This document shows, piece after piece, positions 1 to 22,675 of a stretch of DNA of 34,876 nt (the stretch's first letter is position 1; each line of letters starts with the position of its first letter). Made by a program: the position numbers and the translations under genes. The notes beneath the pieces are model-generated. The model was not told the origin of the DNA and did no database searches. It saw nothing but the letters and a program-made list of their open reading frames with translations. Source of the stretch: a virus; UHGV virus genome UHGV-0134942; one strand, written 5' to 3'.

Positions 1-193
1 CTCGTTGTGGAGAATAACAAAAATGGTCATCTGGAGCTTACAGGTGGCCATTCGTGGGACAGTATCCCTGACAGCCTACAAAACGCAATTGAAGAACGCG
101 AGGCATCGTCTTAACGAGGCACCGAGGAGTCGCATTCTTCAGATGGTTCAACCCTTAAGTTAGCGCTTATGGGATCTCTCCCCGCCAGGTCTC

Positions 194-349
194 TTACCTT
201 TCAGATTCGTAGGCTGTGAAGACAGTGACCTCCGTCTGGCCGGTTCGGATTCGTACCTCGCAGAGGTCTTTCCTCGTTACCAGTGCCGTCACAATGACGG
301 TTAAACAGATGACGATCAGAGCGATTAATATCGCTTTTTGCTGCTTCAT
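194..349 (-). CDS. hok: Hok/Gef-family type I toxin (51 aa), not in the supplied ORF track because it is under 60 aa
   Basis: Manual minus-strand translation gives MKQQKAILIALIVICLTVIVTALVTRKDLCEVRIRTGQTEVTVFTAYESER, which matches the Hok/Gef family (single TM helix, conserved RKDLCEV and TEVxVFTAYES motifs). AAGGAG Shine-Dalgarno lies 9 nt upstream of the ATG at 349. Confidence 0.8.
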   Translation of the reverse strand: MKQQKAILIALIVICLTVIVTALVTRKDLCEVRIRTGQTEVTVFTAYESER

Positions 350-407
350 AGCCTGCTTCTCCTTGACCTTTTGGTCGGTAAGAGGCTAATCTACGTATGC
401 TAAGCAT
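201..407 (-). CDS. Mok-like overlapping reading frame (modulator of killing) covering hok in another frame
   Basis: 68-aa ORF from the track overlaps the hok CDS out of frame and ends 7 nt downstream of the hok stop, as in hok/mok/sok loci. GAGG lies about 8 nt upstream of its ATG. The protein sequence itself is not diagnostic. Confidence 0.35.
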   Translation of the reverse strand: MLSIRRLASYRPKGQGEAGYEAAKSDINRSDRHLFNRHCDGTGNEERPLRGTNPNRPDGGHCLHSLRI

Positions 408-530
408 AGATATTGCCTCAGATTAATGTTAAGCGTCTTGCAGGACGCGTAATGTTATCTGGGGCTTTCTTCTATCTGCTTTTCGGGTAATGCCTGAAGC
501 AGATAGCCTCAAGCACCCGCAACGATTGTA

Positions 531-776
531 TCAATGTCTGGCTTTTTTTCTATAGAAATCACCTGGAAGGGTGAATATCCACATCAGAAGAAATGTTGCA
601 GCAAACATGATCCCTAATGGCCAGACCGCGCCAAAGAAAATCCATACTAAGATCTCCTCTGCTTGTTCTTTGCGGTCGATATCGACAAGCATTTTTCGGC
701 TGATCATGTATACACAGAAGCCAATACAAACATATCCTGCAAAAGCGATCGCTAACTGTAAAAAATCAGATTGCAT
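531..776 (-). CDS. Small two-helix membrane protein (81 aa), function unknown
   Basis: Track ORF 531..857; the internal ATG at 776 has a GAGG Shine-Dalgarno 7-10 nt upstream and avoids overlap with the upstream gene's 3' end. Two hydrophobic stretches (LAIAFAGYVCIGFCVYMI and ILVWIFFGAVWPLGIMFAATFLLMWIF). Confidence 0.4.
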   Translation of the reverse strand: MQSDFLQLAIAFAGYVCIGFCVYMISRKMLVDIDRKEQAEEILVWIFFGAVWPLGIMFAATFLLMWIFTLPGDFYRKKARH

Positions 777-826
777 CTCCGACCTCAAACTGAAAACGCC
801 AGGTGACTCCAGATTAGAGCAATCTA

Positions 827-1672
827 TCACCCTCTGAATCCTGCCGGTATACCCCATTGTTCGTTATCTTTATTTTTGGCTAAAACCGCATTAAGAGCTT
901 CGTTTACCGTCATGCAATGCGGCAGATTATCGAAGTTTGATATCCCGCCAATATCAGGAGAACGCTTGTCCTTCAGGTAAGCATGTTTCCGCGCTGCCGC
1001 CTCTACTTTCTGCTTGAACTCATGTTTTTGAGCGCGTTTTTTGGATAACCGCAGATTGTCAGCCTTTGCTTTTGCCTCAGCGATCCATGAAGTCAATTTT
1101 TTGAGTCTGGTCGTTCCGGCACCGCCGGAAACTGATCTTTTTGTTTTTTTAACTTGTGACTTCTTATTCTTTATTGCCACGTCATCCTGACAGGGGGAGG
1201 GGGTATCATTTTGACATGGGGGTGTGGATAAAAAATTAAATAAAGCCAATGTCTTAGCGAGAACAGCTTTAACCTTGGTTGCCGCTGAAGAGATCTTTAA
1301 TTTGCTTTCAATCAGCGCATTTTTGGCTTGTTGTGCGAAGGCCAAAAAGGATGGTGTAAACCGGTACAGGTTAGCGCGACGTTCACGGTGATCGCCGATA
1401 ACAATCTCTACAGACAGAATTCCTTTGTTTACAGCTTCACGGAATGCACGAACGACGGTTGATTGGCTATAACCAGTTTCTGCCGCGATCAGGCGGTGAG
1501 GCTTGTGAATGAAGTATTCACTGGTTGTTGCCGCGAGATTTGCACATTGCGACAGGATATGCCCGGCGCTACGGGATAGACCGGAGTGTGTTACAAAGCA
1601 GGCCAATTCATAGCCAGAAAAAGTAAAATCGCTCATCGTTATACAGCTCAGGAAAGTGACTTTAGCCAGCAT
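827..1672 (-). CDS. repL: RepL-like lytic replication initiator with helix-turn-helix (281 aa)
   Basis: Track ORF; HTH-like segment IAAETGYSQSTVVRAFREAVNKGILS. Sits directly downstream of the KilA-N gene, as in the P1 kilA-repL lytic replicon. Name is by synteny and size from memory, not a search. Confidence 0.6.
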   Translation of the reverse strand: MLAKVTFLSCITMSDFTFSGYELACFVTHSGLSRSAGHILSQCANLAATTSEYFIHKPHRLIAAETGYSQSTVVRAFREAVNKGILSVEIVIGDHRERRANLYRFTPSFLAFAQQAKNALIESKLKISSAATKVKAVLAKTLALFNFLSTPPCQNDTPSPCQDDVAIKNKKSQVKKTKRSVSGGAGTTRLKKLTSWIAEAKAKADNLRLSKKRAQKHEFKQKVEAAARKHAYLKDKRSPDIGGISNFDNLPHCMTVNEALNAVLAKNKDNEQWGIPAGFRG

Positions 1673-1701
1673 TACAATGCTGGTGGTTCTTACTACGTCT
1701 G

Positions 1702-2502
1702 TTAGCGCGTCGCCGCGACAGGCACCAGCACACCAGCATCAAGCAATCGCTTCATAAGCCACTGCTGACCTTTGCCGGTTATACGAGTCGTGAAAGAAAT
1801 CCTGCTTCCATTGCTTGTATCGATCACGGTTTCTTTAAGGGTGAAATACCTACGGGATATGTATTCTTGTTTGGGGACGTTCCTGCGTTCACCGGTTGCG
1901 ATCAGAATTCCGTTATCACGCAACCAGGTGAAGAGATAGTTTTGGCCCAGGCCGAGCACTTTGGCATAGTTGCCGATTAGAACCCCGCTGGCGGTAGCAA
2001 CGCGTTCGGCGAATTCGACTTTAGGTGCATCCATAAGCATTTTTTGCTCCAGCCGTTGCTTTTGCTCTGCCAGGTCGGCAGCCAAACGGAGAGCTTCAGG
2101 GAGACTCTGCGGAATAGCAGGTTGTAATCTTCCAGCTCGATAGTCGATAAATGTCTGGTTTACCTTCAGCCGAAACGCGGGAGAAATCCAGCCTGCGTAC
2201 TCCACAGCGAGCAATTCATGGGCAAAAGTGCCGCCGCCACGGCCTTCGAACGAAACTATGCAATTCTGCATAGTTTCTTTTTCAAGCTCTTCGATGAGCT
2301 GTTTAGCTGACAGCGTTCTTAGCCATTGAGCTGGCGCTTTATGGGCACCGAGTCCGCTCGCTCTGTGTAGAGCATTAAGGTTGTAACGGCCAGCGCGGTC
2401 GGTCGTAATTTCAACACCACAAATAACGGGCAGAGTGGTTGAAGGATCGACATTTTGATGAAGGTTTGATATATTCATATCCGCATTGAATGTTTGTTGC
2501 AT
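1702..2502 (-). CDS. kilA: KilA-like protein: N-terminal KilA-N-type domain plus C-terminal antirepressor (KilA-C/Ant) domain (266 aa)
   Basis: Track ORF; GGAG Shine-Dalgarno 7 nt before the ATG at 2502. C-terminal half is clearly paralogous to the C-terminus of the next gene (shared PEALRLAA-LAEQK, APKV-FA-RV, LIGN-AKV-GL, W-NGIL, YF..KE, TGKGQQWL motifs). Confidence 0.7.
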   Translation of the reverse strand: MQQTFNADMNISNLHQNVDPSTTLPVICGVEITTDRAGRYNLNALHRASGLGAHKAPAQWLRTLSAKQLIEELEKETMQNCIVSFEGRGGGTFAHELLAVEYAGWISPAFRLKVNQTFIDYRAGRLQPAIPQSLPEALRLAADLAEQKQRLEQKMLMDAPKVEFAERVATASGVLIGNYAKVLGLGQNYLFTWLRDNGILIATGERRNVPKQEYISRRYFTLKETVIDTSNGSRISFTTRITGKGQQWLMKRLLDAGVLVPVAATR

Positions 2503-2571
2503 TTTTTCTCCAAATTTGCATCAACCTTCAATCACCAGCTCGAAATGGTGATTCTTTGCACTTAGAAAACG

Positions 2572-2588
2572 AAATTTATTAGAGCAAA
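2572..2588 (-). promoter_or_regulatory. C1-repressor operator-like 17-mer in the ant/kilA intergenic region (P53-like position)
   Basis: Minus strand reads TTTGCTCTAATAAATTT, 16/17 identical to the P1 C1 operator consensus ATTGCTCTAATAAATTT as recalled from memory; located about 70 nt upstream of the kilA start. Confidence 0.5.
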
Positions 2589-2665
2589 TTTTTCTGACTC
2601 GATCCAGATCGGGTTGGACGATCTGCTCAGAAACCTGCCAGTTTGCTGGCAGGTTTTTTCTTTTG

Positions 2666-3331
2666 TTAACCTATTGCTACTGGTTTTAACAAACCAGCAT
2701 CAAGTAGCTTGCGAGTTAACCACTGCTGGCCTTTACCCGTTAATTGGGGCGTCAGCCGTATCTGGTAGCCATTTTCATCATCCAGCACCACTTCTTTCAC
2801 CGTGAAATACCCGGCGTTGATGTACTGTTGGCGCGGTACGTTTTTGCGCGCACCAAAAGCCATGAGAATGCCGTTCTGGCGCAACCATGAGAAAAGGGCG
2901 TTTTGCTTAAGTCCAACGACCTTTGCAAAGTTCCCGATCAGGATTCCATTAGCCGCTGATACCCGGTCGGCAAAATCGACTTTAGGGGCTGCGGCCACCA
3001 GCTGTTGTTCCAACTGCATTTTCTGTTCTGCTAACTCGGCAGCCAGGCGTAGAGCTTCTGGTAATGTTTGGGGGATCGATGGGGCAGGGGAGTTTGCCTG
3101 CTGTAATTCTTCCAGTTTGTCGATCAGCGAACGGCGGACCGCTTTTGACTCGCGCGCGGCAACTCGCAGGGCTTGTTTGTAGGTCATGGTTATAATATCT
3201 ATTTCTGCGCCGTTTTTTTGACCTACGAAAATTTCGTAGGTTTCTCCTTCAAGCTCATCCTTAACTCTGGCAATGAAATCATTGTTGCGAACTGGTTTTT
3301 CGCTACATAATTTCCGTGCCTCATTGACCAT
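2666..3331 (-). CDS. ant: Antirepressor (Ant-like, KilA-C-type C-terminal domain); frame runs open upstream to the IS1 boundary, so likely a 5'-truncated ant1 / Ant2-like remnant
   Basis: Track ORF 2666..3340; first ATG at 3331 (MVNEARKL...). Manual translation shows the same frame has no stop from 3332 to 3433, the base adjacent to IS1. C-terminal domain is paralogous to the kilA product. Confidence 0.6.
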   Translation of the reverse strand: MVNEARKLCSEKPVRNNDFIARVKDELEGETYEIFVGQKNGAEIDIITMTYKQALRVAARESKAVRRSLIDKLEELQQANSPAPSIPQTLPEALRLAAELAEQKMQLEQQLVAAAPKVDFADRVSAANGILIGNFAKVVGLKQNALFSWLRQNGILMAFGARKNVPRQQYINAGYFTVKEVVLDDENGYQIRLTPQLTGKGQQWLTRKLLDAGLLKPVAIG

Positions 3332-3488
3332 CTTCAACAATGTTTGGCTGTCGATTGTGTCTCCGGTGTTGGGGATGACATTCAGGGCTGGTGCTGGCGT
3401 AGCTGAAGCAACAGGTGCTGGTTTTTCAACATTGGTGATGCTGCCAACTTACTGATTTAGTGTATGATGGTGTTTTTGAGGTGCTCCA

Positions 3489-3764
3489 GTGGCTTCTGTT
3501 TCTATCAGCTGTCCCTCCTGTTCAGCTACTGACGGGGTGGTGCGTAACGGCAAAAGCACTGCCGGACATCAGCGCTATCTCTGCTCTCACTGCCGTAAAA
3601 CATGGCAACTGCAGTTCACTTACACCGCTTCTCAACCCGGTACGCACCAGAAAATCATTGATATGGCCATGAATGGCGTTGGATGCCGGGCAACCGCCCG
3701 CATTATGGGCGTTGGCCTCAACACGATTTTCCGCCATTTAAAAAACTCAGGCCGCAGTCGGTAA
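3489..3764 (+). CDS. insA: IS1 InsA (91 aa)
   Basis: Protein [43 protein letters not shown]... is the canonical IS1 InsA. Confidence 0.95.
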
Positions 3765-4186
3765 CCTCGCGCATACAGCCGGGCAGTGACGTCATCGTCT
3801 GCGCGGAAATGGACGAACAGTGGGGCTACGTCGGTGCTAAATCACGTCAGCGCTGGCTGTTTTACGCGTATGACAGGATACGGAGGACAGTTGTGGCGCA
3901 CGTTTTCGGTGAACGCACTCTGGCCACACTGGAGCGTCTTCTGAGCCTGCTGTCGGCCTTTGAGGTCGTGGTATGGATGACGGATGGCTGGCCGCTGTAT
4001 GAATCACGCCTGAAGGGAAAGCTGCACGTTATCAGCAAGCGTTACACTCAGCGCATTGAGCGACATAATCTGAATCTGAGACAACATCTGGCAAGGCTGG
4101 GACGGAAGTCGCTGTCGTTCTCAAAATCGGTGGAGCTGCATGACAAGGTCATCGGGCATTATCTGAACATAAAACACTATCAGTAA
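3683..4186 (+). CDS. insB: IS1 InsB reading frame (B'); the InsAB' transposase is made by a -1 frameshift from insA
   Basis: 167-aa ORF with the canonical IS1 InsB sequence (…[54 protein letters not shown]…). Confidence 0.9.
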
Positions 4187-4203
4187 GTTGGAGTCACTAC
4201 CTT

Positions 4204-5394
4204 GGATCTGAAGGTAAGGCAAATCTCGATAAGTTGGCTCCGTATTTTGCTGAACTAGAGAATAAATATGGTCTTCCAGAAGGCACTCTTTACGCGATTG
4301 CTGCAACTGAATCTGGTGGTAATCCGTATGCAAAATCCCAAACCGGTGCTCTGGGAATGTTTCAGTTCACGGGGATTGCTCGTGAAGAGACTGGCTTAGC
4401 TGAAGGTGAATCGTTTGATCCTGTGAAATCGGCAGAAGCTGCGGCTCTTCTCATGAGCAAGTATCTGAAGCAAGCCAATGGAGACTTAAACGAGGCCATC
4501 ACTGCATATAACGCTGGGTTTGGCACTATCAATAAGTGGAAAAAAGGCACAGGTGACTTATCGAAAGAAAACCGTGAGTACGCGATCAAGGTCAATACTC
4601 ATCGTGCTCGCTATTTAGGTGGTGAAATCTATACACCTGGAGCAGGAGCACAGGGTGGGGCGCAATATGGAGTGAGGGGACCACTGCCTGATAACGCTGT
4701 TATCGATCAGTCTACTGGCCTGGCGTTTACCCCTAGTGATAGCCCGTTTGAGAAAGGCGGTCTGGTAGACAAAATCGGCAATGCTGTTGGCGTTAACGAT
4801 CTGGTCAACAAATTCATGAATGGCCGGGGTATGCGTCGGGAAGTCGTTCAGGGAACGCTCGAAGAACGTGCACGAGGGAAGGGGACCGCAACAGCAGCTG
4901 GCAATGTGTATGTTGATACTCCGATGCCAGTTGAAGAGGCGCGTCCGGTGACCAGCAACTCAAGTTACTTTGACCAACTCGGCGCACAAATGGGGATTGA
5001 TGGACTATTCGATAAACTCCGCAACTCGCCGGGGATGCGGAAAAATAATGCGCCTGAACCAGCCTCCACGTCCCAGGTGACGACTGCCGCCAACGATTTG
5101 CAGCAACCAACCGGTCGTATGCAGATAGACGGACAGGTTATTAGTGACCTTGGTGGTTCCGGTGCCAAGCCGACAATGCAGTTGGCTGATAATACCGTTT
5201 CACTTGATGGTGAAACGAAGCGGCTGTTTGCGCAGATGACCTCATTACTTGCCAGGATTGAAGAGCACACCAAAGACTCGGCGAAAGGCCAGGGAACTGT
5301 CGTAAAGGTCAGCACGCCTCAGCCGGGCGTTATGCGCACGGTACCACTGTCAATTGATGATCCGTTGATGAATGACTACGCGAGAGTTGATTGA
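4204..5394 (+). pseudogene. sit: 5'-truncated sit-like structural injection transglycosylase (C-terminal about 396 codons, lytic transglycosylase domain)
   Basis: Reading frame is open from the first in-frame codon after IS1 (4204); the track only finds a TTG start at 4234. SLT-domain motifs ATESGGNPYAKSQTGALGMFQF and AYNAG are present. Followed by pmgA/bplA-like genes as in P1. Confidence 0.65.
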
Positions 5395-5750
5395 TGGCCA
5401 ACAATAACGAAATTGATCCTTTGCTGACGCTGGAGTTATCCGGCGTAAAAACGTATGAGTCCCAGGAGGAGGCCTGGGGCGCTCGTTTATATGAGTGGCT
5501 AAACACTTATCAGGGTGAGGTATACGGAGATCCGTCATGGGGCAATGTTTTACCGCAGTTTAAACACGAACCGACCAACTTGTCGCATGTTCAAATTGCG
5601 GTTGAGGCAATGCTGTTGCAAAAACTGACGGTAGATTTATCTGACATACCGATTTCTGGCTTGTCAGTAGCCGAGGGAGATGCTTTTGATAAGTTGAAAA
5701 TATCCATTCGTATCAGGGATATAACTATCACACAGGACGTGGTGCTATGA
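5394..5750 (+). CDS. pmgA: Putative tail/baseplate morphogenesis protein (118 aa)
   Basis: Track ORF; ATG at 5394 overlaps the upstream stop (translational coupling). Name by synteny only. Confidence 0.45.
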   Translation: MANNNEIDPLLTLELSGVKTYESQEEAWGARLYEWLNTYQGEVYGDPSWGNVLPQFKHEPTNLSHVQIAVEAMLLQKLTVDLSDIPISGLSVAEGDAFDKLKISIRIRDITITQDVVL

Positions 5751-7180
5751 GTAAAACAACACCGACTAAAGACAGTATTCGTGCAGAGTTTGAAGAGCTT
5801 GTCGAGAAAGATTCATTCTGGTCGAAGTTTGTCGGCTCTCAATTTGTCTCGATGCTGACATTGTTTATTACCCAGATTGTCTACAGGTGCTTTCAGTATG
5901 CCGATGCGGCGCTGGCTGAAGGCTTTATATCGACCGCGACGCGGCGTTCCTCTATCTTGGCAGCGGCAGAAACGAATAGTTACGTTGGTACCAAGCCAAC
6001 ACCGTCATCGGGGATGATTGAGATCACCGCCACAAGTGAAGATGCCCCAGCGGTAATCCCCAAAAACATGCCTTTAATATCTGACGACCAGTACCCTTAC
6101 ATGACTATGGATGTATGCAGGTTGGTTGACGGCACCGGTACGGTAGAAGTGGCACAGTTGGAAATCCAGGAGGTGACATATACCGTTACGGCAGCCAAAG
6201 AATTTCTGGAAGTCGTGTTATCAAAGGCTCTCACTGCTGTCTGCTATAAGCTGGAAGTATTCGTGACGACCGATGGTAAGACCACGCAGTGGTCTTCCAG
6301 CACTATGTTCCGGTTAGCCGGTAGTAAAAGCCAGGTCTACGTTGAGTTTTATAAACCATCCGAGCAGTTGGGGGTTCGATTCGGTGATGGGCTAATTGGG
6401 CAAATACCGCCAGAAGGCTCGACCATTACACTTAAGGTATGGTGCACCAACGGAGATATAACCTTGGTTGCTGGCCAAAATCTGACGCCTGTCGATTCTG
6501 CGGCTAATTTAGCTAATTTGATTTCAGTTAAGACAACGACACCCATAACCGCAGGTACCGATGCCGAAACAACGGAGATCACACGTAATCGTGCACAATA
6601 TTACCTTGCCTATGATGATCAGGTCGTATGGGGCGGGGACTATACGTATTTTCTGGTGCGTAACATCCCGGGACTGTCCTGGGTAAAGGCATGGGGCGAA
6701 GGCCAGCAAGAGAAATTAGATGGTGCTTATAATATCCGGAATATCAATAAGATATTTATTTCAGGATGGCATCCAAACAAAAGCCAGTCAGAGCTTGAAG
6801 AAATGATCCTGGCTGCCTTTAAGAAGGTGCCGAATGAGTTGAACAAGAAATTCTCGTATAAAGAGGTCAGAAAACTACCCTTTAAGATCACCATCACCGG
6901 GCGGATATCGGCAAGCCTGACCATTGAGAACGTGACTGATGAGCTGAAGTCGGCACTGGAAACAAAATTTGGGCGTGACTCAACTTTCTTTGATCCGAAC
7001 CGTGTCGGCAAGTACATCCTAATCAAGAAAAAAGACGTTTGGGCATTTATCGAAACGCTGGGTTATTTCCGCGACTTTTATCTGGAATTTGTCGAGTGGA
7101 ATGAGTCCAACGGCTTTTACGATTTCGTTTATCTGGATACAGAAAACTCCACCTTTAATATTTCGTATGAGGAGGAGTGA
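5747..7180 (+). CDS. bplA: Baseplate protein (477 aa)
   Basis: Track ORF coupled to neighbours by ATGA overlaps at both ends; position between sit and the tail fibre genes. Name by synteny. Confidence 0.5.
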   Translation: MSKTTPTKDSIRAEFEELVEKDSFWSKFVGSQFVSMLTLFITQIVYRCFQYADAALAEGFISTATRRSSILAAAETNSYVGTKPTPSSGMIEITATSEDAPAVIPKNMPLISDDQYPYMTMDVCRLVDGTGTVEVAQLEIQEVTYTVTAAKEFLEVVLSKALTAVCYKLEVFVTTDGKTTQWSSSTMFRLAGSKSQVYVEFYKPSEQLGVRFGDGLIGQIPPEGSTITLKVWCTNGDITLVAGQNLTPVDSAANLANLISVKTTTPITAGTDAETTEITRNRAQYYLAYDDQVVWGGDYTYFLVRNIPGLSWVKAWGEGQQEKLDGAYNIRNINKIFISGWHPNKSQSELEEMILAAFKKVPNELNKKFSYKEVRKLPFKITITGRISASLTIENVTDELKSALETKFGRDSTFFDPNRVGKYILIKKKDVWAFIETLGYFRDFYLEFVEWNESNGFYDFVYLDTENSTFNISYEEE

Positions 7181-8016
7181 TGCAGCGTTCCTGGTTTAAT
7201 AACCGGCTTACATCAGCTAAGCAAAAGTCATTGCTCTATAAATCATTGGCTGATTTGGTTCAGTCAATGATGGATACCTTTGTTGACCCATGGTTGGAGC
7301 GAATTACCAACCGGAAGTCTATTTTTTCCATGAGCAAGGAGGATCTGGAGACCAGGACAAATGAACTTGGCCAGTTCTTTACTATCAGAACGTCGAACTC
7401 ATCTTCCGTTCCGATGTTGTTACAACAGCGTCTTGATGAGATTCACTTTAAGGGGACTGAACGCCCTATAAACCAGACAATTTACCGCGAATTTAACGGT
7501 ATTTCTGTTTTATGGGATCCGATATATGCACCGGTGGACCTTGAGCGTCATCCCTATGGCACGGTTCTAATACCAGAAAGCACACTGGAGACTACCGGCG
7601 GCACATTCGGCGAGATGTTTCTGACTTCCAGAGGGATGATCAGTATTCCCATAAACGACCTGGCCCGGACAATGGGGATTACTGGCACGATAGATCAGTC
7701 CGCAATTACAGAAGAAATTCTCAGAAAGTTTAATCAGTTCGTAAAGCCTCTACTGCCACTGCATATAGTGTTTGATGGGCTTACGCTCTATTTGTCGGTT
7801 GTTGTAAATGAACAGGCCGACATGATCACTTTGAACGAGATTTCTGATACCGAAAAAGCATTCTGCTGGTTTGAAACTTCGGATACAACTTCGCTTACTG
7901 GAGTTACGTCGATTAGCGCCCCGATCACCGCAACGCCTGGTGGCACTATTGTGAAAGCGACACCTACGTTTGATCGCACACGCGCAGATGATTTGTTGCT
8001 GGATAGCGACGCCTGA
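7180..8016 (+). CDS. Baseplate/tail structural protein (P1 gp16-like, 278 aa)
   Basis: Track ORF 7177..8016; ATG at 7180 overlaps the bplA stop. Confidence 0.5.
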   Translation: MQRSWFNNRLTSAKQKSLLYKSLADLVQSMMDTFVDPWLERITNRKSIFSMSKEDLETRTNELGQFFTIRTSNSSSVPMLLQQRLDEIHFKGTERPINQTIYREFNGISVLWDPIYAPVDLERHPYGTVLIPESTLETTGGTFGEMFLTSRGMISIPINDLARTMGITGTIDQSAITEEILRKFNQFVKPLLPLHIVFDGLTLYLSVVVNEQADMITLNEISDTEKAFCWFETSDTTSLTGVTSISAPITATPGGTIVKATPTFDRTRADDLLLDSDA

Positions 8017-8019
8017 CAA

Positions 8020-8044
8020 TCACCCCGTCCGCAGGGCGGGGTGA
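8020..8044 (+). terminator. GC-rich stem-loop after gp16 (possible attenuator or weak terminator)
   Basis: CACCCCG(8021-8027) pairs with CGGGGTG(8037-8043); weak U-tract downstream. Confidence 0.3.
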
Positions 8045-8094
8045 CAAGTTACTTCTCTTACAATGAGGCTTCACAACATTGATTAGGGAAAATC

Positions 8095-8529
8095 ATGTCT
8101 GACGTCTCAACAAACCTCTATAAGAGTCAGTTGTTGGACTATTACTATCAGCGGCGCGCTGAATCGTCCATTAACAAAGGCTCTCGATTTTTAATCAGCA
8201 AGGCCGTTTTCGGTACCAGTTCACTGGTTACTAAGAAAGGAGATGGCACTTATGAGATTGGAGAACTGCCAAAGGCTTTCGATCTGGCAGAACTGACCAG
8301 TCAATTTTGCACCATCAACCTCGTCCCAACCTACTCAGGCGGGATAATAACTGTCCGAATGGACCTTGATCAAAGCCAGTTGCAGGAAGGGAAAAACTAC
8401 CCATTCAACACTCTGGTTGTTCTGGATAACGAGAACAAGCCAATCGCCATTATTTGTGTCCAGGAAGACTCGCTGTATGTGGGCAAAACATATACCGCAG
8501 TTATGGCCATAAACACGACTACAGCATAA
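8095..8529 (+). CDS. R: Tail fibre-associated structural protein (P1 R-like, 144 aa)
   Basis: Track ORF immediately upstream of the tail fibre gene; stop at 8527-8529. Confidence 0.45.
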
Positions 8530-8540
8530 GGATATGCTTG

Positions 8541-11500
8541 ATGAATGACGTTACAGTTGTCACATCGGTTACTTACCCATCACCCGAGTCGTTGGCTCTG
8601 GTGGCTGATGTGCAATACCACGAACCATATCTGTCAGCCGCGCTAAACCGAAAATTCAGGGGGATTGTTGACCCGGGATTTTATGCCGGTTTCTTACCTA
8701 AGCCTGGCGGTGGGATGAACCTGTTAATCACCTCAGTGGATGGTGATAAAACCGCAGGCGCGGCGTCGGTGGATATTGGTGAATTCTACCAGGTAACTAT
8801 TCAGCAACGTAAGGATATTTCTCTTGCACTTAGTGCAGGCAAGAAATATGCAATTGTGCTGAAGGGAAGATACCTCCTTGGAGAAGATACCTATCAGGTG
8901 AATACCGCGTCACATATTCATGCGGCTGAATTTGTTTCCAGAACCTATACCGATTCATATCAGTTAGGAGATGGGGAGCTGCTTGTTTGTACGGTGAATA
9001 TCCCTGCTGGTGTATCTGCCATTACCCAGGAGATGATTGATACATCCAAGCGTATCAACCGCACGATCGGCATTGATATTTCAGACTCTGTAACCAGTAC
9101 CAGAAGTGATGTTGCTGCGAGTTCGCTGGCAGTTAAAAAAGCCTACGATCTGGCTAAAAGCAAGTATACGGCGCAGGATGCAAGCACAACACAAAAGGGA
9201 TTAGTTCAGCTCAGTAGCGCAACTAACAGCGACAGCGAAACAATGGCGGCTACCCCTAAAGCCGTTAAGTCTGTAAAAGAGCTGGCTGATACCAAAGCGC
9301 CAATAGAAAGCCCGAGTCTGACAGGAACGCCAACCGCGCCGACGGCAGCGCAAGGTACAAACAGCACGCAGATCGCAAATACAGCCTTTGTTAAGGCAGC
9401 TATAACGGCACTTATCAACGGTGCACCTGGCACACTGGATACGCTTAAAGAAATAGCTGCTGCGATCAATAACGACCCGAATTTCAGCACAACTATCAAC
9501 AATGCTCTGGCTCTTAAAGCTCCTTTAGCAAGTCCTGCATTAACGGGAATACCTACTGCGCCTACCGCTGCACAGGGTACGAATAACACGCAGATTGCTA
9601 CGACCGCTTATGTAAGAGCTGCTATCTCTGCATTGGTCGGCTCATCACCTGAAGCTCTTGATACTCTGAATGAGCTTGCAGCAGCACTGGGCAATGACCC
9701 GAACTTTGCGACAACAATGACAAATGCGCTGGCAGGCAAACAGCCTCTGGATGCAACTTTAACCGCGCTCGCTGCCCTTGCGACTGGTGCAAACAAACTG
9801 CCTTATTTCACTGGTAAGGATACGGTAGCGCAGACTGATTTAACGTCAGTCGGTCGCGATATTCTGGCTAAAACAAGCACACTGGCCGTTATCCAATACC
9901 TTGGTTTAAGAGAACTCGGTACCAGCGGTGAAAAGATCCCCCTGTTGAGCACGGCTAACACATGGAGTGCGCGCCAGACTTTCAACGGCGGGATCACCGG
10001 GGCGCTGACAGGGAACGCCGACACCGCGACGAAATTGAAAACAGCACGCACGATTGGCGGTGTGGCATTTGATGGCTCGGCCAATATCAATCTTCCAGGT
10101 GTAAATACAACAGGTAACCAGAACACCACGGGGAATGCTGCTACCGCGACAAAACTTGCGACGGCAAGAAACATCAACGGTGTTAAGTTTGATGGCTCAG
10201 GCGATATCAACATTAATACATTGGTATCTCGTGGCCGAGTTACGGCGTTAAGCGGCTCTACTCAAGGCACTGCTGGCATTCAAATGTACGAGGCGTACAA
10301 CAATAGCTACCCGACCACGTATGGCAACGTATTGCACATGAAAGGTGCGAGTGCTGCTGGTGAGGGCGAGTTGCTTATTGGCTGGAGTGGTACGAGCGGT
10401 GCACATGCGCCAGTTTTCATTCGCTCCCGAAGAGATAACACAGATGCGGCATGGTCTGAGTGGGCACAGGTCTATACATCGAAAGACTCCATACCGGGCG
10501 TAAATACAACGGGCAACCAGAACACAACAGGAAATGCGGCGTCTGCCACGAAATTACAAACGGCAAGAACCATTGGTGGCGTTTCATTTAATGGTACCGC
10601 AAACATCGACCTGCCAGGTGTGAATAAAACAGGTAATCAGAGCACTACTGGCAATGCTGCAACTGCAACAAAACTGCAAACAGCACGCACAATAGGCGGC
10701 GTATCATTCGATGGCTCCGCCAATATCAATCTGCCGGGTGTAAACATTGCTGGTAACCAGAACACAACCGGTAATGCAGCTACGGCTACCAAATTGCTAA
10801 CAGCGCGTACCATTAATGGGGTTTCATTTGACGGTTCTGCGAATATTTCACTGTCACCAGCAAATATTGGTTGCCCGGCATCTCCTACTGGTTGGCTTGT
10901 AACAGGTGATAATGGAGCTTCAATAACAACAGAGCAATTAGTGACTCTGCTACGAGATAATGGTGCTTTTAATGCAAAGGCATGGATAGCGCGTTGTGCC
11001 TGGGCGTATGCAAATAGTGCATCCATACCAGACAGCGAAACAGGATGCGGCATTATTCCACTGGCTGGCGCAGTTATTGAGGTATTTAATAACGGCAGTA
11101 GCTCAAACAATTATACGATTCGTATAACAACGGCAACAACGACAGGTGTCTCTGGCGCACTCACTAATGCGGAGTTTGTCTATGTGTTTAACGGGACGAG
11201 CTATTCACCAGGATGGCGCAGAGCGTATAACACTAAAAACAAGCCTACTGCGGCTGATGTCGGAGCTTTACCACTATCTGGAGGAGCGTTAACTGGCGGA
11301 TTAACTGCTGCTGGCGAGATTATTTCCAAATCGGCGAATGGTCTGCGCATTGCCTACGGAAACTACGGATTCTTTATCCGAAACGATGGTTCAAACACAT
11401 ATTTCATGTTGACCGATTCGGATAACAGCCTAGGAACCTATAATAGGTTAAGGCCGCTTATCATTAACAATGCCAATGGTGCTGTTACGATCGGTAATGG

Positions 11501-12560
11501 ACTCAATGTTACTGGCGGCATCAATGGTAGTTTGAACGGTAATGCTGCAACTGCTACAAAACTTCAGACTGCAAGAAAAATATCCGGTGTTCCATTTGAT
11601 GGTTCTACTGATATCACTTTAACCGCCGCGCATGTGGCTGCTTTTGCCAGAAGGGCAACGGATACATATGCCGATGCGGATGGTGGCGTTCCCTGGAATG
11701 CCGAATCAGGCGCTTACAATGTCACCCGCTCTGGCGACAGCTATATTCTGGTTAACTTCTATACCGGAGTCGGAAGTTGCCGGACATTGCAGATGAAGGC
11801 GCATTACAGAAATGGTGGTCTGTTCTACCGTTCTTCAAGAGACGGTTATGGTTTTGAAGAAGACTGGGCAGAAGTTTATACCTCGAAAAATCTTCCACCA
11901 GAAAGCTACCCAGTCGGCGCACCAATCCCGTGGCCATCAGATACCGTTCCGTCTGGTTATGCCCTGATGCAGGGGCAGACTTTTGACAAATCTGCTTACC
12001 CGAAACTTGCAGCCGCTTATCCGTCAGGCGTGATCCCTGATATGCGTGGCTGGACGATTAAGGGCAAACCTGCCAGTGGTCGTGCCGTATTGTCTCAGGA
12101 ACAGGACGGCATTAAATCGCACACCCACAGCGCCAGCGCATCCAGTACGGATTTGGGGACGAAAACCACATCGTCGTTTGATTACGGTACTAAACCAACG
12201 AATAACACAGGTGCACATACCCACAATGTATCTGGTACTGCAAATAGTGCTGGCGCACATACTCATACCGTTCCATTAAGGAGACCAAACAGTGGAGGTA
12301 TGAATTTCGACTGGCTTGATGGTTCATCAAGTGGCACGGTCGTGGGGAATGGAACAGTGCCTTCTTCTGGTGCACACACCCACTCAGTATCAGGCACTGC
12401 TGCAAGTGCAGGGGCGCATGCACATACAGTTGGTATTGGCGCTCATACGCACTCTGTTGCGATTGGTTCACATGGACATACCATCACCGTTAATGCTGCT
12501 GGTAACGCGGAAAACACCGTTAAAAACATCGCATTTAATTATATTGTGAGGCTTGCATAA
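8541..12560 (+). CDS. S: Tail fibre protein (1339 aa) with internal tandem repeats and a His-rich C-terminal tip
   Basis: Track ORF 8454..12560; the likely start is the ATG at 8541 ([15 protein letters not shown] Shine-Dalgarno upstream, just after the R stop). Two ~74-aa repeats ([26 protein letters not shown]…), at least five copies of a ~40-aa unit ([40 protein letters not shown]), and C-terminal GAHTH/HxH repeats. Confidence 0.85.
9300..9760 (+). repeat. Two ~222-bp in-frame tandem repeats inside the tail fibre gene (phage-fibre repeat)
   Basis: Protein repeats [63 protein letters not shown] and [63 protein letters not shown]. Confidence 0.7.
10006..10860 (+). repeat. Array of ~120-bp in-frame tandem repeats inside the tail fibre gene
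   Basis: Recurrent unit [10 protein letters not shown](Q/A/L)TART/NIxGVxFDGSANIxLPGVNxxGNQ(N/S)TT; a further copy lies near 11527-11625. Confidence 0.7.
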
Positions 12561-13177
12561 TGGCATTCAGAATGAGTGAACAATCACGTACAGTAAAAAT
12601 TTATAACCTGCTGGCCGGAACTAATGAGTTTATTGGTGAAGATGACGCATATATTCCACCTCATACAGGGCTGCCAGCTAATTCTACAGATATCGCCCCA
12701 CCGGAAATTCCTACTGGCTTTGTGGCAGTTTTCAACAGTGAAAATGAATCGTGGAATATTGTTGAAGACCATCGTGGTAAAACGGTCTATGAGGTGGCAT
12801 CGGGGGACGCGTTGTTTATTTCTGAACCCGGACCGCTACCAGAGAATGTCACCTGGTTGTCGCCAGCAGGGGAGTATCAGAAGTGGGACGGCGTATCCTG
12901 GGTGAAGGATGAGGAAGCAGAAAAACTGTTTCGGATACGGGAAGCGGAAGAGAAAAAGGCAAGGTTGATCCAGGAGGCAACAGATAACATCGCAATTCTG
13001 CAGGACGCAGTTAATCTTGAAATAGCAACAAACGAGGAAAATTCACAACTGGACTCCTGGAGAAAATACAGAGTATTAGTGAGTCGAATTGATACCAGTA
13101 CAGCTCCGGATATCGTATGGCCAGAGCTGATGAATCAGGGTTATGTGCGGGAGGACGAGCAGATAACTTCAGACTGA
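12560..13177 (+). CDS. U: Tail fibre assembly chaperone (Tfa/U-like, 205 aa)
   Basis: ATG overlaps the S stop (TAATG); size and position typical of tail fibre assembly proteins; conserved W-KYR-like C-terminal segment ([14 protein letters not shown]). Confidence 0.75.
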
Positions 13178-13704
13178 AATTTAGTGATGAATGTTGAATC
13201 ATCAGGAATATCATGCAATACCAATGCATGAGCACCTATTGTGACATTGTTTCCTATACGCACTTTGCCACCAAGAATGGTGGCATTACAACCAATGGTC
13301 ACATTATCTCCTATAACAATATCCATGTCATTAAATTCCCCGCGAAGTCCAATAGTTACTCCGGGCTTAATTGAACAATTTTCACCGATTGTGACTTTGT
13401 GAGCGATAACAACGCCATTGAGATAAGATATGTCAAACCCTTTCCCTATATTTACCGTTAAGGGAACGGTTACATTGTATTTGTCAAGAATGAAGCGTTC
13501 TATTTTCCCTGCAACCTTTCGCCTGTATCCGCCTTTATCAAAAAGATATTTTGATATGCGCCACCAAAATAAATAACGAACTCTTCTATGTTTTATTGCG
13601 CGAACAATTGCTTTTCGCCAAGAGAAAGGACGCTCGCTACCAATTACTTCATAGTGAATACAGTCTTTAAGTTCATTAATAGTCATATTTCTATTGTTCA
13701 GCAT
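13141..13704 (-). CDS. Hexapeptide-repeat (left-handed beta-helix) acetyltransferase, AT-rich; possible moron (187 aa)
   Basis: Imperfect hexapeptide repeats ([16 protein letters not shown]…[34 protein letters not shown]). Markedly lower GC than the flanking phage genes. Converges on U and overlaps its 3' end by 37 bp. Confidence 0.7.
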
Positions 13705-13769
13705 AATATAATAATGTGACCAATTATTATAATAACTTTAATGGATTATTTCTACTGATTATCCAGTGT

Positions 13770-14700
13770 GTCTGGCGGTTTTCGGTATTATCTGCCGGAA
13801 CCATGCCTCATCCAGCGGGTATTTGCTGCCTGGGTTGTCCGGTTTTTCGGTCACTCCCTCAGGCCTCCGATTCTGGTCACGGCGGGTTTGTTATTTTCCA
13901 GTGCGTCGGATGACCACTGCCGCAACTTCTGCACCATTTTTTGGGAGCGGGATTTCACTCCTACGCAACCTGCGCTTTTTGTGCAGCCTGTTTTGCGTGC
14001 TATCCCGGATTTTTGAGTTTCATTCTGCCTCCATGATCCTATCAGGGACGACACCAATCCACTTAAGCACGATGCCAAGACCATCAAGGAGCTGCGTCAG
14101 AGGCCCAGCACAATGTTCTGCTTGATCGGCATAGGGGGGAGCACAAGGGCTGCGCCCCTGCCACACCACCCGGCATGCGGGTCCGTACCGGGCTTCCTCG
14201 GCTTCTGACGCAATGTCCTGTCAAGAGTCATATCTTCTGGCTTTCCTTCTCGTTCGGCCCTTCGTCGGAGTCCTGACTACTACGGCCTCTGCTGACTTCT
14301 CGCTCCGTCTTACGACGTTGCCCTTTCAGGCATGAGGCGAGAACTCCCCAGGTAAGAACGCGATCCTTCCCCGCACAACCGTCGGATCTGCGCGACTTCG
14401 ACTTGACCACGAAAGCTTCGCAGTGATGTGCCTGCTCGCCTTGCTCCATCGCGCCTCATATCCGATTCTCGTTCATCGGCTCACGGGTTCATTCCGTGCT
14501 TCCTCCCCACGCCCGGTCGCCCTCACGCAGTTGCACTTCATTTCGCTCGCTGTGGTCAGCTCGCGGGAGGGCTTTCACCTCCAAGATCGCGCCCATGCTG
14601 GGCGCACACATCCTCCACGCTCTAAAGGACGTGGAGGATGTCAAGCAACATGACCGGTTGAGAAGTTACTTTGCATACCATTACCTCCTGACAACGTAGG
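13770..14700. other. ~0.9 kb GC-rich, strand-skewed block (pyrimidine-rich on +) without a convincing ORF; candidate structured RNA, long leader or decayed gene
   Basis: All six frames give only short overlapping Pro/Ser/Arg-rich ORFs of 60-120 aa. Contains perfect hairpins at 14589-14605, 14609-14640 and 14684-14703. Lies where P1 carries cin and the invertible C-segment. Confidence 0.4.
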
Positions 14701-14703
14701 AGG
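14684..14703 (+). promoter_or_regulatory. Hairpin pairing the lydA Shine-Dalgarno (AGGAGG) with an upstream CCUCCU
   Basis: CCTCCT(14684-14689), 8-nt loop, AGGAGG(14698-14703); GTG start of the holin-like gene at 14710. Confidence 0.4.
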
Positions 14704-14709
14704 GAACTT

Positions 14710-15039
14710 GTGCTTGACACACAGGAATTAGCTCCAGTTGCTATTGCGCTCCTGCTTTCAGTAATTGGTGGGATAGGCACGTTCCTGATGGATGTCCGAG
14801 ATGGTCGCCAGTCTGGCAATTTGTTGGGATTGGTTACGGAGATCTTTGTTGCAGTGACAGCTGGCGCGGTGGCGTACCTATTGGGGCAACACGAGGGCTG
14901 GGAGTTATCAATTACGTACTTAATGGTAACGATAGCCAGCAATAACGGTCATGAGGTGATTTCAGGGATGAAACGAGTGAATATCGATAGCATTCTGAAT
15001 GTTCTTACAAGTTTGGTGAAAAAGGGAGGTGGGAAATGA
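14710..15039 (+). CDS. lydA: Holin-like membrane protein (109 aa)
   Basis: GTG start with AGGAGG Shine-Dalgarno; hydrophobic helices (LAPVAIALLLSVIGGIGTFLM and EIFVAVTAGAVAYLLG); first gene of the hdf-darA operon, as P1 lydA. Name by synteny. Confidence 0.55.
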   Translation: MLDTQELAPVAIALLLSVIGGIGTFLMDVRDGRQSGNLLGLVTEIFVAVTAGAVAYLLGQHEGWELSITYLMVTIASNNGHEVISGMKRVNIDSILNVLTSLVKKGGGK

Positions 15040-15479
15040 TTGGCTGGGGTGTATGCGTTCTTGCGTTAGCCTTAGCCGATCGCTATTTGCTAAAACGCAA
15101 GGACATCACGCATTTAGAACTTGGTGATGTGGAAGTTAAACAGGGCTTCATCCGGGTGCCGTTCAAATACCGGTCTAAATTCCCGTTTTTGCGCGGCGCA
15201 ACGGTCAGATATTGGATCCGCGATGTTCAGAAGCCAACGACAGTGATTGAAGGCGAACAACGTTGTCTGACGTCGGCTGAACAGGGCGAAAACAGTGAAT
15301 GGTTGTACATACCCACTGAATATATGGGTAAAGGAGAACGGCTGTGGCATTTCAACGTCATGGTTACGCATGGTGACTCGTTCATTAACCCGTTGTATCG
15401 GATTTTCCCTGTTACTCAGCAAATCCGCAGAAGTTACGTAATAAATCTCGCACAGGATGTGTCAGATGACGAAAAATAA
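15036..15479 (+). CDS. lydB: LydB-like lysis regulator (antiholin-like, 147 aa)
   Basis: ATGA overlap with lydA; N-terminal hydrophobic segment. Name by synteny. Confidence 0.5.
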   Translation: MIGWGVCVLALALADRYLLKRKDITHLELGDVEVKQGFIRVPFKYRSKFPFLRGATVRYWIRDVQKPTTVIEGEQRCLTSAEQGENSEWLYIPTEYMGKGERLWHFNVMVTHGDSFINPLYRIFPVTQQIRRSYVINLAQDVSDDEK

Positions 15480-16068
15480 GTATGCAACGGTCGATTTTGA
15501 CCAGGTTAATGAAAAGGGGCTGAAATCCCTTATCGCGGCGATCAATAAAACCGGGGTTACGGTAATTGAGGTTGACTCCAGCAACCGCGCAACAACGAAA
15601 GATGGCGTTAAAGTTAAAACCGCAAAGCTGGTTCTTAACGACGGACAAATTCTTGCCATACAGGTAAACGATACTGGCGATATATCGTCTGTGAAACTGA
15701 ATGGAAAAGCTATTCCTAACGCTCAGTCGCCGGATATCAAGACGCTTGGTACCGTCATGGGACAGGCGGCCCGCAAAAACTCCGCAAAATTCCAGAAATC
15801 ACTGATCGCCAAAGCGAAGCGTGTTGCCAATCCGGTAGACAAGAAACCGGCAGTTAAATCCAACTTTCAGCGCCTGCAAGAAGCAAAACAGCGGAATGCT
15901 CAGGTGGTTGCCGCTTATAAGTCCGCGCAGAATTCGGTGTCTTTCAATCAACAGCAGATCACTGATTTGCGGGCGAAGCTGGATAAGGAGACAGGCCGAC
16001 TCAATAACGAAAAGGCCCGAAATGGCGAACTCAAACGCCGTCTTAAGCAACTGAAAGCAGGAAATTAA
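15457..16068 (+). CDS. hdf: Hdf-like protein (homologue of a DarA fragment, 203 aa)
   Basis: Shares a segment with the downstream 639-aa protein (…KNSAKFQ…, and GQILAIQVNDTGD versus GQTISILFHSPTAE). Position upstream of darA as in P1. Confidence 0.55.
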   Translation: MCQMTKNKYATVDFDQVNEKGLKSLIAAINKTGVTVIEVDSSNRATTKDGVKVKTAKLVLNDGQILAIQVNDTGDISSVKLNGKAIPNAQSPDIKTLGTVMGQAARKNSAKFQKSLIAKAKRVANPVDKKPAVKSNFQRLQEAKQRNAQVVAAYKSAQNSVSFNQQQITDLRAKLDKETGRLNNEKARNGELKRRLKQLKAGN

Positions 16069-16069
16069 C

Positions 16070-17989
16070 ATGGAGCAGTTCAATATCAATAAAGGGGTGA
16101 CGATCAAGCCTGGGCTTGACGTGCTTCCCCCGCCAGTGACTGATGATGAATATCGCGCATTAATGGCCGGTGAGGACCGCTATCTGATGACGGAATCCAA
16201 CACCCTGGAGGAAATCGAGGCTACGTTCTTCTATGACACGCCGATCCACTGGTGTGCTACGGATTTACTGGAGGCGATTAGTTCTACTCGTTTGCAGTTA
16301 CACCGGACCATGCAGGCATTTGTCCGGGCATTGAACCAGAAGCTGAATGGTACCGGAATCTCTGCGGGGAGTGATAAAACGGGGGATGTGGCCCAGAACG
16401 GCGCGCGCGCGATCGGCGGTGCTGAAATTGGCCGGGCACGGAACGTTAACGGGCTGCCGGTCCTGCCAGCCATTATTCCGCTCAGTGATGGTCAGACTAT
16501 CAGCATTCTGTTTCATAGCCCGACAGCGGAAAACCGGATCACCAATAGCGATACGCTGGTTGCTTTCCAGTTCTTACTGAATAAAAAAGACGTTACTCAC
16601 ACCGTTGCTCCGATGAGTGGACGTGATATGACGCTGGCGCAGGTCACCATGAAACTTGCCAACCTTGCAGAGAAAAACTCGGCAAAATTCCAGCGTGCGC
16701 AGAAGAAGAAAAAAGCCCTGGTTGATGAAATAACCCAACTACAGGCTGACAGTGACCAGAAAGAGGATGCCATGAGCGACCTCGCGGATCAGGTGGCAGT
16801 GGTAGAAGGGCAGAAGGCAGATCTGGAGCAGAAAATTAACGCGGTCGCCTCGGAAGCGGATTCTCTTTATGAAGAGAATGAGCGTTTGCAGGCGGAGATT
16901 GATCAGCTCAATCGAACAGGTGGGCGCGATACCATTGCTCCAGTGGCAATAACTGGTGGGCACTCACGCGCGTTGACGGATCGCCTTGCCAGTATCAAAA
17001 ATCGCATGCATATGGACGGTGAAGCGACGCTCAGTAATGGTGCATCAATGAAGCAATTCATTGGGGATGGCGAAGGGTATATCCAGTTAACCGATCCGGA
17101 TGGCAGCGTATACATGATCAAGGCTAAATCCATACAGGGTGTGGACATGGCAGATGCAATCGGCAAGCTGTTTAAAGCCTATAAAGCGGGTAATGTATCG
17201 GAATACCTGGTCCAACCAGAAGAACATAAACCGGAAAACGTCGAACCTGAACCAGCGGAGGATACCGGTAGCTCTTCGCCTGAACCAGAAGTCTCTGTAG
17301 GTGCATATCGATATGCCCTGCAAATGCGTCCGGCGGCCCCTGGCGCAATACCTGAAGGTAACAAAGCAATTCTGCCGCGCCCTGATGAAGGTGACCCGTA
17401 TTATGAATATGCACGCTACGGCATTGCTACTTACGATACCCCGCTTTCTGATCAGCAAATGAGTGAGTACGACCTGAAGTTATTGCCTCGCGAGGATTCT
17501 TTCGATTTCCTGGCGAAGACACTTACTAATGGTCCGTTTGGCAAATATGCACAAAAAGCTCTGGAGCTGGCCACCAGCTCACCAGACGAGTTCCGCGTAA
17601 TGCTGAAAACTCAGTTTCAAAAAACTTTCCCCAATATTGCGTTTCCTGGGGGCGCTGGCACCGAGAAAATGGTGCAGAGCATGATCAATGCATTGCAGGC
17701 CGAAGTCGGTGAGATTACTCAGCCAGAACCGGCCCCGGCACAGCCTGATGAAACGGTTAGCGAAGCAGATGCAGAGGCTAATAAAGCCATTGAATATCTC
17801 AATAACGTGATGGATATGCAAAGCACTGACATGGCGGAGATCCGTAACGCCCGGGGCAATGTCCGGGAAGCGATTGCAGCCCTTCAGGCTGCCGGACGTT
17901 TTGAGGAAAACGAAGAGCTGGTTAACGGCGCAGCTCGCCACCTGGCTGATCTGTTGGTAGCAATCCAGAAAGCGGGGGTAGCGGCATGA
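16070..17989 (+). CDS. darA: DarA-like internal head protein, anti-restriction (639 aa)
   Basis: Size and position match P1 DarA as recalled; central coiled-coil and acidic segments; AGGAAA Shine-Dalgarno before the ATG. Confidence 0.6.
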   Translation: MEQFNINKGVTIKPGLDVLPPPVTDDEYRALMAGEDRYLMTESNTLEEIEATFFYDTPIHWCATDLLEAISSTRLQLHRTMQAFVRALNQKLNGTGISAGSDKTGDVAQNGARAIGGAEIGRARNVNGLPVLPAIIPLSDGQTISILFHSPTAENRITNSDTLVAFQFLLNKKDVTHTVAPMSGRDMTLAQVTMKLANLAEKNSAKFQRAQKKKKALVDEITQLQADSDQKEDAMSDLADQVAVVEGQKADLEQKINAVASEADSLYEENERLQAEIDQLNRTGGRDTIAPVAITGGHSRALTDRLASIKNRMHMDGEATLSNGASMKQFIGDGEGYIQLTDPDGSVYMIKAKSIQGVDMADAIGKLFKAYKAGNVSEYLVQPEEHKPENVEPEPAEDTGSSSPEPEVSVGAYRYALQMRPAAPGAIPEGNKAILPRPDEGDPYYEYARYGIATYDTPLSDQQMSEYDLKLLPREDSFDFLAKTLTNGPFGKYAQKALELATSSPDEFRVMLKTQFQKTFPNIAFPGGAGTEKMVQSMINALQAEVGEITQPEPAPAQPDETVSEADAEANKAIEYLNNVMDMQSTDMAEIRNARGNVREAIAALQAAGRFEENEELVNGAARHLADLLVAIQKAGVAA

Positions 17990-18351: not shown

Positions 18352-18363
18352 GGCGTAACAGGG

Positions 18364-21649: not shown

Positions 21650-21651
21650 AG

Positions 21652-22641: not shown

Positions 22642-22675
22642 CGCTTTTCTTTCAGTCGTTTTTTACTCATAAACT

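Follow-up and report, generated by a model that had tools for sequence, protein, structure and literature searches.

The stretch of DNA analyzed here (the window; 34,876 nucleotides of the virus genome UHGV-0134942) carries an IS1 element wedged between the remnants of two genes, ant1 and sit, and almost certainly derives from an ant::IS1 ancestor by a deletion anchored on that IS1. Compared with its nearest relative, plasmid p6CP1-IncY-mcr-3.5 (NZ_CP064027.1), the window shows a clean loss of 7,050 bp that starts at the right end of IS1, as an initial annotation made from the sequence had proposed for the sit-to-ant interval. Moreover, this one IS1 copy is found in three states: with an intact target duplication, with a 2.2-kb deletion, and with the 7.05-kb deletion described here. 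Such a series, in which deletions of differing length all end at one IS terminus, is the classic hallmark of IS-promoted adjacent deletion.

Results

An intact IS1 lies between two truncated genes

The features on which the argument depends are listed below by window position.

827-1672, minus strand: repL (lytic replicon initiator plus oriL), intact; tblastn with P1 RepL, 281/281 aa, 98% identity
1702-2502, minus strand: kilA, intact; tblastn with P1 KilA, 266/266 aa, 99% identity; Pfam KilA-N and ANT
2666-3433, minus strand: ant1/ant2 remnant, codons 90-344 of the 344-codon ant1; frame open to IS1; Pfam ANT
3425-3433: TTCAACATT, left copy of the original 9-bp ant1 target duplication, which has survived; relatives have TTCAACATT on both sides of IS1
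3434-4201, plus strand: IS1, 768 bp, apparently functional; terminal repeats at 3434-3456 and 4179-4201
4201/4202: deletion junction; the missing 7,050 bp are NZ_CP064027.1 46486-53535 (blastn, flank mapping)
4202-4210: TTGGATCTG, nucleotides 2498-2506 of sit, contiguous with ...GGAAGTC in intact sit
4202-5394, plus strand: sit remnant, starting at base 2 of codon 833 and ending at the stop codon; tblastn with P1 Sit aa 734-1140; Pfam SLT
5394-5750, plus strand: pmgA, intact; tblastn with P1 PmgA, 118/118 aa, 99% identity

The genes repL, kilA, ant, sit, and pmgA stand in P1 order with 82-99% amino acid identity to P1, and the nucleotide identity of the window to P1, P7, and phi456 is 93-99%. 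Its sequence marks the window as a segment of a P7/P1-like (IncY-type) phage-plasmid with a Punavirus-type backbone. The plasmid maintenance genes repA/oriR and parAB, together with c1, adjoin the homologous region in relatives and lie outside the window here. In P1, pmgA-sit-pmgB-tub-pmgC-simC-simB-simA run along one strand and c4-icd-ant1/ant2-kilA-repL along the other (NC_005856), an annotation that agrees with the gene content (pmgB, tub, pmgC, simCBA, c4, and icd) initially listed for the sit-ant interval.

The element between the two remnants was initially placed at 3332-4236. IS1 does lie there, but those bounds were slightly too wide, having run to the nearest ORF start codons; the true span is 3434-4201. 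Its terminal inverted repeats (about 23 bp, imperfect) are both intact and have the common core CCAACTTACTGAT. The 23-bp left repeat occurs a single time in the window and not once in 100 shuffles. Both insA (3489-3764) and the insB' frame (3683-4186) are undamaged, the programmed -1 frameshift site of IS1, TTAAAAAAC (A6C), is found at 3738, and the Pfam matches PF03811, PF12759, and PF03400 correspond to the InsA zinc-ribbon and HTH and to DDE_Tnp_IS1. In length, terminal repeats, insA/insB' arrangement, frameshift site, and domains, the element agrees with the IS1 family. It is 100% identical to the IS1 of NZ_CP064027.1 and 95.3% identical to an IS1B copy.

The flanking genes are truncated in the way that had been proposed: ant1 (minus strand) on the left and sit (plus strand) on the right both lack their 5' ends, and the two remnants diverge from IS1, oriented relative to each other as they are in P1. 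On the minus strand, the ant frame (ANT/KilAC domain, Pfam) is open from 2666 to the left end of IS1 and beyond it. The remnant is without both start codons, icd, and the promoters, and has no coupling to icd; the start of ant2 in P1 corresponds to ant1 nucleotide 250, upstream of the ant1 break in the window. In the RefSeq records of relatives, the matching piece of ant is annotated as a pseudogene 'missing N-terminus'.

On the plus strand, the sit frame is open from within IS1 (4144) through 5394. The remnant comprises 396 complete codons of 1229, and the N-terminal 832 of the 1229 residues are gone. What survives begins 14 residues ahead of the SLT transglycosylase domain and retains that domain (Pfam; residues 14-123 of the remnant, 847-956 of full Sit), while the N-terminal part annotated as the tail ruler is missing. 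The sit remnant is not fused to InsB, since insB' terminates at 4186 in a frame other than that of sit, and a stop codon at 4141-4143 interrupts the sit frame. Downstream of pmgA come the baseplate and tail-fibre genes.

The absence of a direct repeat around IS1, which the initial annotation had pointed out, was confirmed. No target-site duplication of 8-9 bp is present at the IS1 of the window: TTCAACATT on the left and TTGGATCTG on the right agree at 4/9 positions, and the 15-bp flanks have no k-mer of four or more bases in common. Because the same IS1 copy has a 9-bp target-site duplication in six relatives, this absence is secondary and is no argument against assignment to IS1.

The ancestral state is preserved in close relatives

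How did IS1 come to lie between these genes? The relatives supply the ancestral state. Plasmid NZ_CP064027.1 has an identical IS1 at the identical position in ant1, as a simple insertion flanked on each side by TTCAACATT. The same ant1::IS1 insertion with TTCAACATT duplicated is also found in NZ_CP062905.1, in AP027471.1, and in three draft assemblies, and by match extent seven PLSDB plasmids in all, including KX518745, have the simple insertion. These P7-like plasmids (p6CP1, pHYEC7-mcr1 KX518745, NZ_CP062905.1, and AP027471.1) are 99.8-100% identical to the window across ant and IS1. Unlike the window, however, they keep the 9-bp duplication and the full icd-c4-sim-pmgC-tub-pmgB-sit interval.

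Alignment to p6CP1, the closest intact relative, located both breakpoints, one in ant1 at the IS1 end and the other at sit nucleotide 2497/2498. Window positions 1-4203 (4,203 bp, left of the junction) are 100.000% identical to locus positions 9602-13804 of NZ_CP064027.1, and window positions 4201-9153 (4,953 bp, right of the junction) are 100.000% identical to locus positions 20852-25804, which lie 7,050 bp further on (blastn). On either side of the deletion the window is thus colinear with the relative, without inversion. Past window position 9153 the identity to p6CP1 drops to 99.1-99.5%, and three indel regions distinguish the two.

The missing stretch corresponds to locus positions 13803-20852; locus base 13802 is the last base of IS1. 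It therefore opens with the base directly adjoining the IS1 right end and closes with sit nucleotide 2497; the right end of the element reads IS1|TTCAACATTTAAATT in the ancestral form and IS1|TTGGATCTG in the deleted form. An ancestral insertion is documented, one end of the deletion falls exactly at an IS terminus, and the other flank of the element is unchanged, which is the pattern of an adjacent deletion. A single clean 7-kb deletion is the sole lesion seen in the window.

A history of the opposite polarity is formally symmetrical to the one we favor: IS1 would have entered sit first, and a deletion would have run leftwards from its left end into ant. This is exceedingly improbable. At least nine PLSDB plasmids have the exact ant-IS1 left junction, as do several draft assemblies, most of these sequences retain the target-site duplication, and no sequence was found that has the sit junction but lacks the ant junction.

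The lost interval carries immunity and tail genes

Searches of the relative with P1 proteins (tblastn) identified Ant1 residues 1-92, Icd, SimA/B/C, PmgC, Tub, PmgB, and Sit residues 1-832 in the lost interval. These proteins are 92-100% identical to P1, apart from the divergent extreme N-terminus of Sit; the Ant1 portion takes in the ant2 start, and Tub is the major tail tube protein by P1 annotation. The C4 antisense RNA (RF01695) and its a1b1 target (RF03163) gave Rfam matches in the relative only, within the lost interval. A promoter search placed the late promoter LPsit in the same interval. Loss of LPsit is a refinement of the initial gene list, and the baseplate and tail-fibre genes that follow pmgA are now without this promoter upstream.

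None of this material was detected in the window. Ant1 residues 1-92, Icd, SimA/B/C, PmgC, Tub, PmgB, and the Sit N-terminus had no tblastn match in the 34.9 kb, C4 and its a1b1 target had no Rfam match there, the LPsit core was absent, and the deleted 7,050 bp had no blastn match anywhere within it. The predicted loss of the tail tube gene and its neighbors is thus borne out. A complete P1-like tail module (Tub, PmgB, PmgC, full-length Sit, and LPsit) is not present in the window, and the same five components were likewise not found in the 21-kb locus of an isolate assembly (GCA_045574165.1). Absence of the lost genes was checked over the 34.9 kb plus 5.8 kb further left in the locus of that assembly, and their relocation to another part of the replicon, which would have undone the initial proposal, is unlikely.

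The junction recurs in independent assemblies

The window makes up the opening 34,876 bp of a 39,314-bp short-read metagenome contig (ERZ1744277 NODE_174), and the start of this contig coincides exactly with the IS421 of relatives, so repeats did affect the assembly. It could accordingly be asked whether the assembler joined ant-IS1 to IS1-sit through the repeat, or collapsed a segment between two IS1 copies. We regard such an artefact as very improbable. Both junctions, 768 bp apart, recur in identical form on a 123,975-bp contig of an independent isolate assembly (JBIGQO010000002.1 in GCA_045574165.1). That contig is 99.94% identical to the window, and its scattered single-base indels suggest that it comes from long reads. 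The IS1-sit right junction is also present in a second metagenome contig (ERZ1744269), which begins inside IS1. Moreover, a physical IS1-sit junction at the sit breakpoint must exist in any case. Because the IS1-sit junction is present both in the independent isolate assembly and in the second metagenome contig, it is not an assembly artefact.

The other assemblies with the junction were reached solely by exact-protein look-up of the truncated Sit ORF. One match from this look-up was set aside: its sit is intact, and a run of N makes the gene caller yield the same 386-aa product. A 34-mer spanning the exact junction had no match in GTDB representative genomes, IMG/VR, or JGI metagenomes, and the junction was not found in the phage, PLSDB, or complete E. 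coli collections. We found no mention of the accessions JBIGQO, GCA_045574165, ERZ1744277, or ERZ1744269 in the literature.

A nested deletion starts at the same IS1 end

A second, shorter deletion is anchored at the same place. Plasmid NZ_CP122864.1 has the same IS1 and left flank as the window and a 2,224-bp deletion that starts from the identical nucleotide after the IS1 right end, joining IS1 to sequence just downstream of simC. Its sibling NZ_CP122848.1 has the same 2,224-bp deletion by match extent. These plasmids, from E. coli ETEC1720 and ETEC1722, lose only the ant N-terminus, icd, c4, and simABC, whereas the window loses more; they keep LPsit, pmgC, tub, pmgB, and sit, so their tail genes, unlike those of the window, are unaffected.

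We propose that the deletion in the window probably arose in one transposase-mediated step. The history would begin in a P7-like ancestor with insertion of IS1 into ant1 at codons 90-92, duplicating the 9-bp TTCAACATT; this step is seen directly in the relatives, and the mechanism of the later deletion is the part we infer. The right end of the ant1 IS1 would then have attacked TTGGATCTG in sit, 7 kb away on the same molecule, by transposase-driven intramolecular replicative transposition in the deletion-forming orientation. The 7,050 bp in between would have been released as a non-replicating circle without an origin and lost. IS1 itself would have stayed put, its left flank unchanged and its right flank replaced, and hence without a target duplication; TTGGATCTG would be the 9-bp target of this deletion-forming event. 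The inversion product of intramolecular transposition does not fit the window, in which sit has its ancestral orientation, IS1 is single, and the sequence is colinear with the relative.

Could homologous recombination have produced the same structure in two steps? A second IS1 would have inserted in the same orientation at sit nucleotide 2498, duplicating TTGGATCTG, and RecA-dependent recombination between the direct copies would have excised the 7 kb plus one IS1. This route would yield precisely the structure seen in the window, target-site duplications are known to go missing when IS copies recombine (PMC11708052), and sit can take IS1, as an IS1B at a different sit position in NZ_CP048823.1 attests. 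That plasmid is not itself the intermediate, since its IS1B, 95.3% identical and placed 391 nt upstream, still lies between the two halves of sit. No IS1 was found at the sit breakpoint in phages, PLSDB, or complete E. coli genomes, however, and no sit::IS1 intermediate was found among the 24 contigs with the ant::IS1 remnant. The nested 2,224-bp deletion would, in addition, demand another independent secondary insertion. We therefore consider the two-step route unlikely, although it deserves to be taken seriously: the end product has the same sequence by either route, and sequence alone cannot prove the mechanism.

Discussion

Our analysis describes a textbook IS1-anchored deletion, one more and well-resolved instance in a lineage already known for IS-driven decay. 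IS1 is a classic producer of adjacent deletions, as reportedly shown by Reif and Saedler in 1975 and by Turlan and Chandler in 1995. As in the window, the classic examples in gal and in plasmid systems have an intact IS, one original flank, a deletion endpoint at the other terminus, and no duplication, and they include independent nested deletions with a common anchor at the IS end. Those deletions were selected in the laboratory, whereas the ones described here are found in natural phage-plasmids and are known from sequence; there is no visible mechanistic difference between them. A missing target-site duplication is typically put down either to adjacent deletion or to recombination between IS copies (PMC11708052).

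Precedents also exist among the P1-like plasmids themselves. Their IS-driven deletion and rearrangement, including truncation of sit and tub, has been documented (PMC6906374), and insertions into ant1 are known from mcr-1 P7-like plasmids (PMC5786510). The plasmids pTZ20_1P and pSvP1 (Venturini et al.) resemble the window in that IS activity has removed tail and immunity genes from a P1-like backbone; their tub and sit are truncated, and they are presumed unable to complete the phage cycle. They differ from the window in that the elements involved are IS26, ISEc84, IS2, and IS186B, and in that their rearrangements are larger and multi-step, often with plasmid cargo.

What does the deletion mean for the phage-plasmid? 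The consequences considered here are drawn from gene content and from P1 biology as annotated in NC_005856. The element probably cannot build tails or infectious or transducing particles and persists only as a plasmid, because Tub, PmgB, PmgC, the two thirds of sit that include the ruler part, and LPsit are missing. The lytic replicon kilA-repL remains. Loss of C4 control over ant had been put forward as a further consequence; c4 is indeed gone, but the ancestral IS1 insertion had already inactivated ant1 and ant2, and therefore loss of c4 has no further effect on ant. With neither immunity region I nor sim left, C1 would be the sole support of lysogeny, and superimmunity would be lost together with sim.

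Why does a single IS1 copy occur in three states? One idea, which we put forward as speculation and think rather improbable, is that the states mark a selected, repeatable route and not neutral decay in resistance-associated P7-like phage-plasmids. If so, the antirepressor would be silenced first, immunity region I and sim would then be shed, and the tail genes would follow. The outcome would be a stable, non-inducible plasmid state, circulating in one isolate and at least two metagenome assemblies.

Whatever drives them, the three states at one IS1 offer a clean natural example of IS-anchored nested deletions. The deletion in the window also has a modest practical bearing: prophage predictors would probably still score this element as P1-like despite the loss of tub, the tail ruler, and immunity region I, and assessments of how resistance genes spread in this lineage should count it among plasmids and not among transducing phages. 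Conversion of P1-like phage-plasmids to ordinary plasmids through gene loss has been reported on a large scale (PMC10879196). Within the phage-plasmid-to-plasmid conversion that Pfeifer and Rocha described, the three states at this IS1 document a concrete early stage.

Identity and gene content relative to p6CP1

Apart from the deletion beside IS1, positions 1-9153 of the window are 100% identical to the closest relative, the plasmid p6CP1-IncY-mcr-3.5 (p6CP1; NZ_CP064027.1), whereas identity drops to 99.1-99.5% over positions 9154-34465. Because identity changes at 9153, with all mismatches in the alignment of 4201-21647 (89 of 89) falling beyond this position, the sequence comparison suggests a recombination mosaic of closely related P7-like plasmids.

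The two elements also differ in content. Where p6CP1 carries a 2.1-kb ompC/nmpC porin region, the window instead has a segment of approximately 1 kb (21648-22673) with one ORF:

21679-22641, minus strand: 320-aa ORF without a Pfam match

This arrangement is found at 99.9% identity in several pig-derived plasmids, for example NZ_CP062827.1. Moreover, p6CP1 has a 1.3-kb IS200/IS605-type TnpB (insQ) element between the head-processing and lysis genes, whereas the window lacks it (24186/24187).

Ends of the window

The first base of the window is also that of its source contig, and its position can be placed in two related loci:

1: start of the window and of ERZ1744277 NODE_174; position 9602 in the p6CP1 locus (L002) and 47737 in a second p6CP1 locus (L004); site of IS421 in relatives

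At this exact base, p6CP1, the ETEC1720 plasmid (NZ_CP122864.1) and the 124-kb contig of isolate assembly GCA_045574165.1 each carry a copy of IS421 (IS4 family). Since the start coincides to the base with this element, the left end of the contig is probably a repeat-induced assembly break rather than a biological end.

The last 411 bp (34466-34876) have no match in any of the 11 related loci, and an ORF runs off the window here:

34505-34876, minus strand: ORF running off the window end, without a Pfam match

This region, downstream of the gene for a 2255-aa methylase/helicase, is a variable hotspot; at the corresponding spot, other P1-like elements instead carry SIR2, PIN, YaaC or acetyltransferase genes.

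The sit gene in related loci

An exact-protein look-up with the truncated sit product of the window returned a locus (L010) whose sit is intact but contains a scaffold gap of N (2055-2154). Owing to this gap, the gene caller outputs exactly the same 386-aa product there as for the window. Loci without the rearrangement can thus turn up in exact-protein look-ups.

Within the N-terminal part of sit, a 165-bp repeat occurs in copies that are approximately 93% identical and spaced 297 bp apart:

L002 18458-18622 and 18755-18919: repeat copies, in the portion of sit that the deletion removes

RefSeq places the start of sit differently from one plasmid to another (996 versus 1229 aa), and the repeats are a possible cause.

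Small RNA and intron features

Two further features were placed with Rfam, the first also by correspondence with relatives:

194-518, minus strand: hok/sok type I toxin-antitoxin locus
14257-14526, minus strand: two adjoining group II intron D1-D4 matches

The former, comprising sok RNA (344-518; RF01794, 114 bits) and a hokD homologue placed by correspondence at approximately 194-349, is an ordinary component of the P7/P1-like backbone. The intron matches (RF02001, 96.9 bits; RF01998, 46.8 bits) sit in a gap of approximately 1 kb between an acetyltransferase-like gene and a holin gene; no ORF for a reverse transcriptase lies close by. They look like an intron fragment, and the region is colinear with p6CP1.

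Additional antirepressor genes

Several P1-like elements encode a second antirepressor module adjoining c1 (ORF6N plus ANT, approximately 370 aa), sometimes accompanied by a 73-aa Icd-like ORF:

L014 12977-14307; L018 17158-18273; L019 17573-18909: second antirepressor modules in loci of other P1-like elements

p6CP1 itself has an additional KilAC antirepressor gene (L004 1289-2374), which at the DNA level shares 85.6% identity with positions 2682-3007 of the window. Given these extra genes, loss of ant1 may not remove all antirepressor activity in the elements that carry one.
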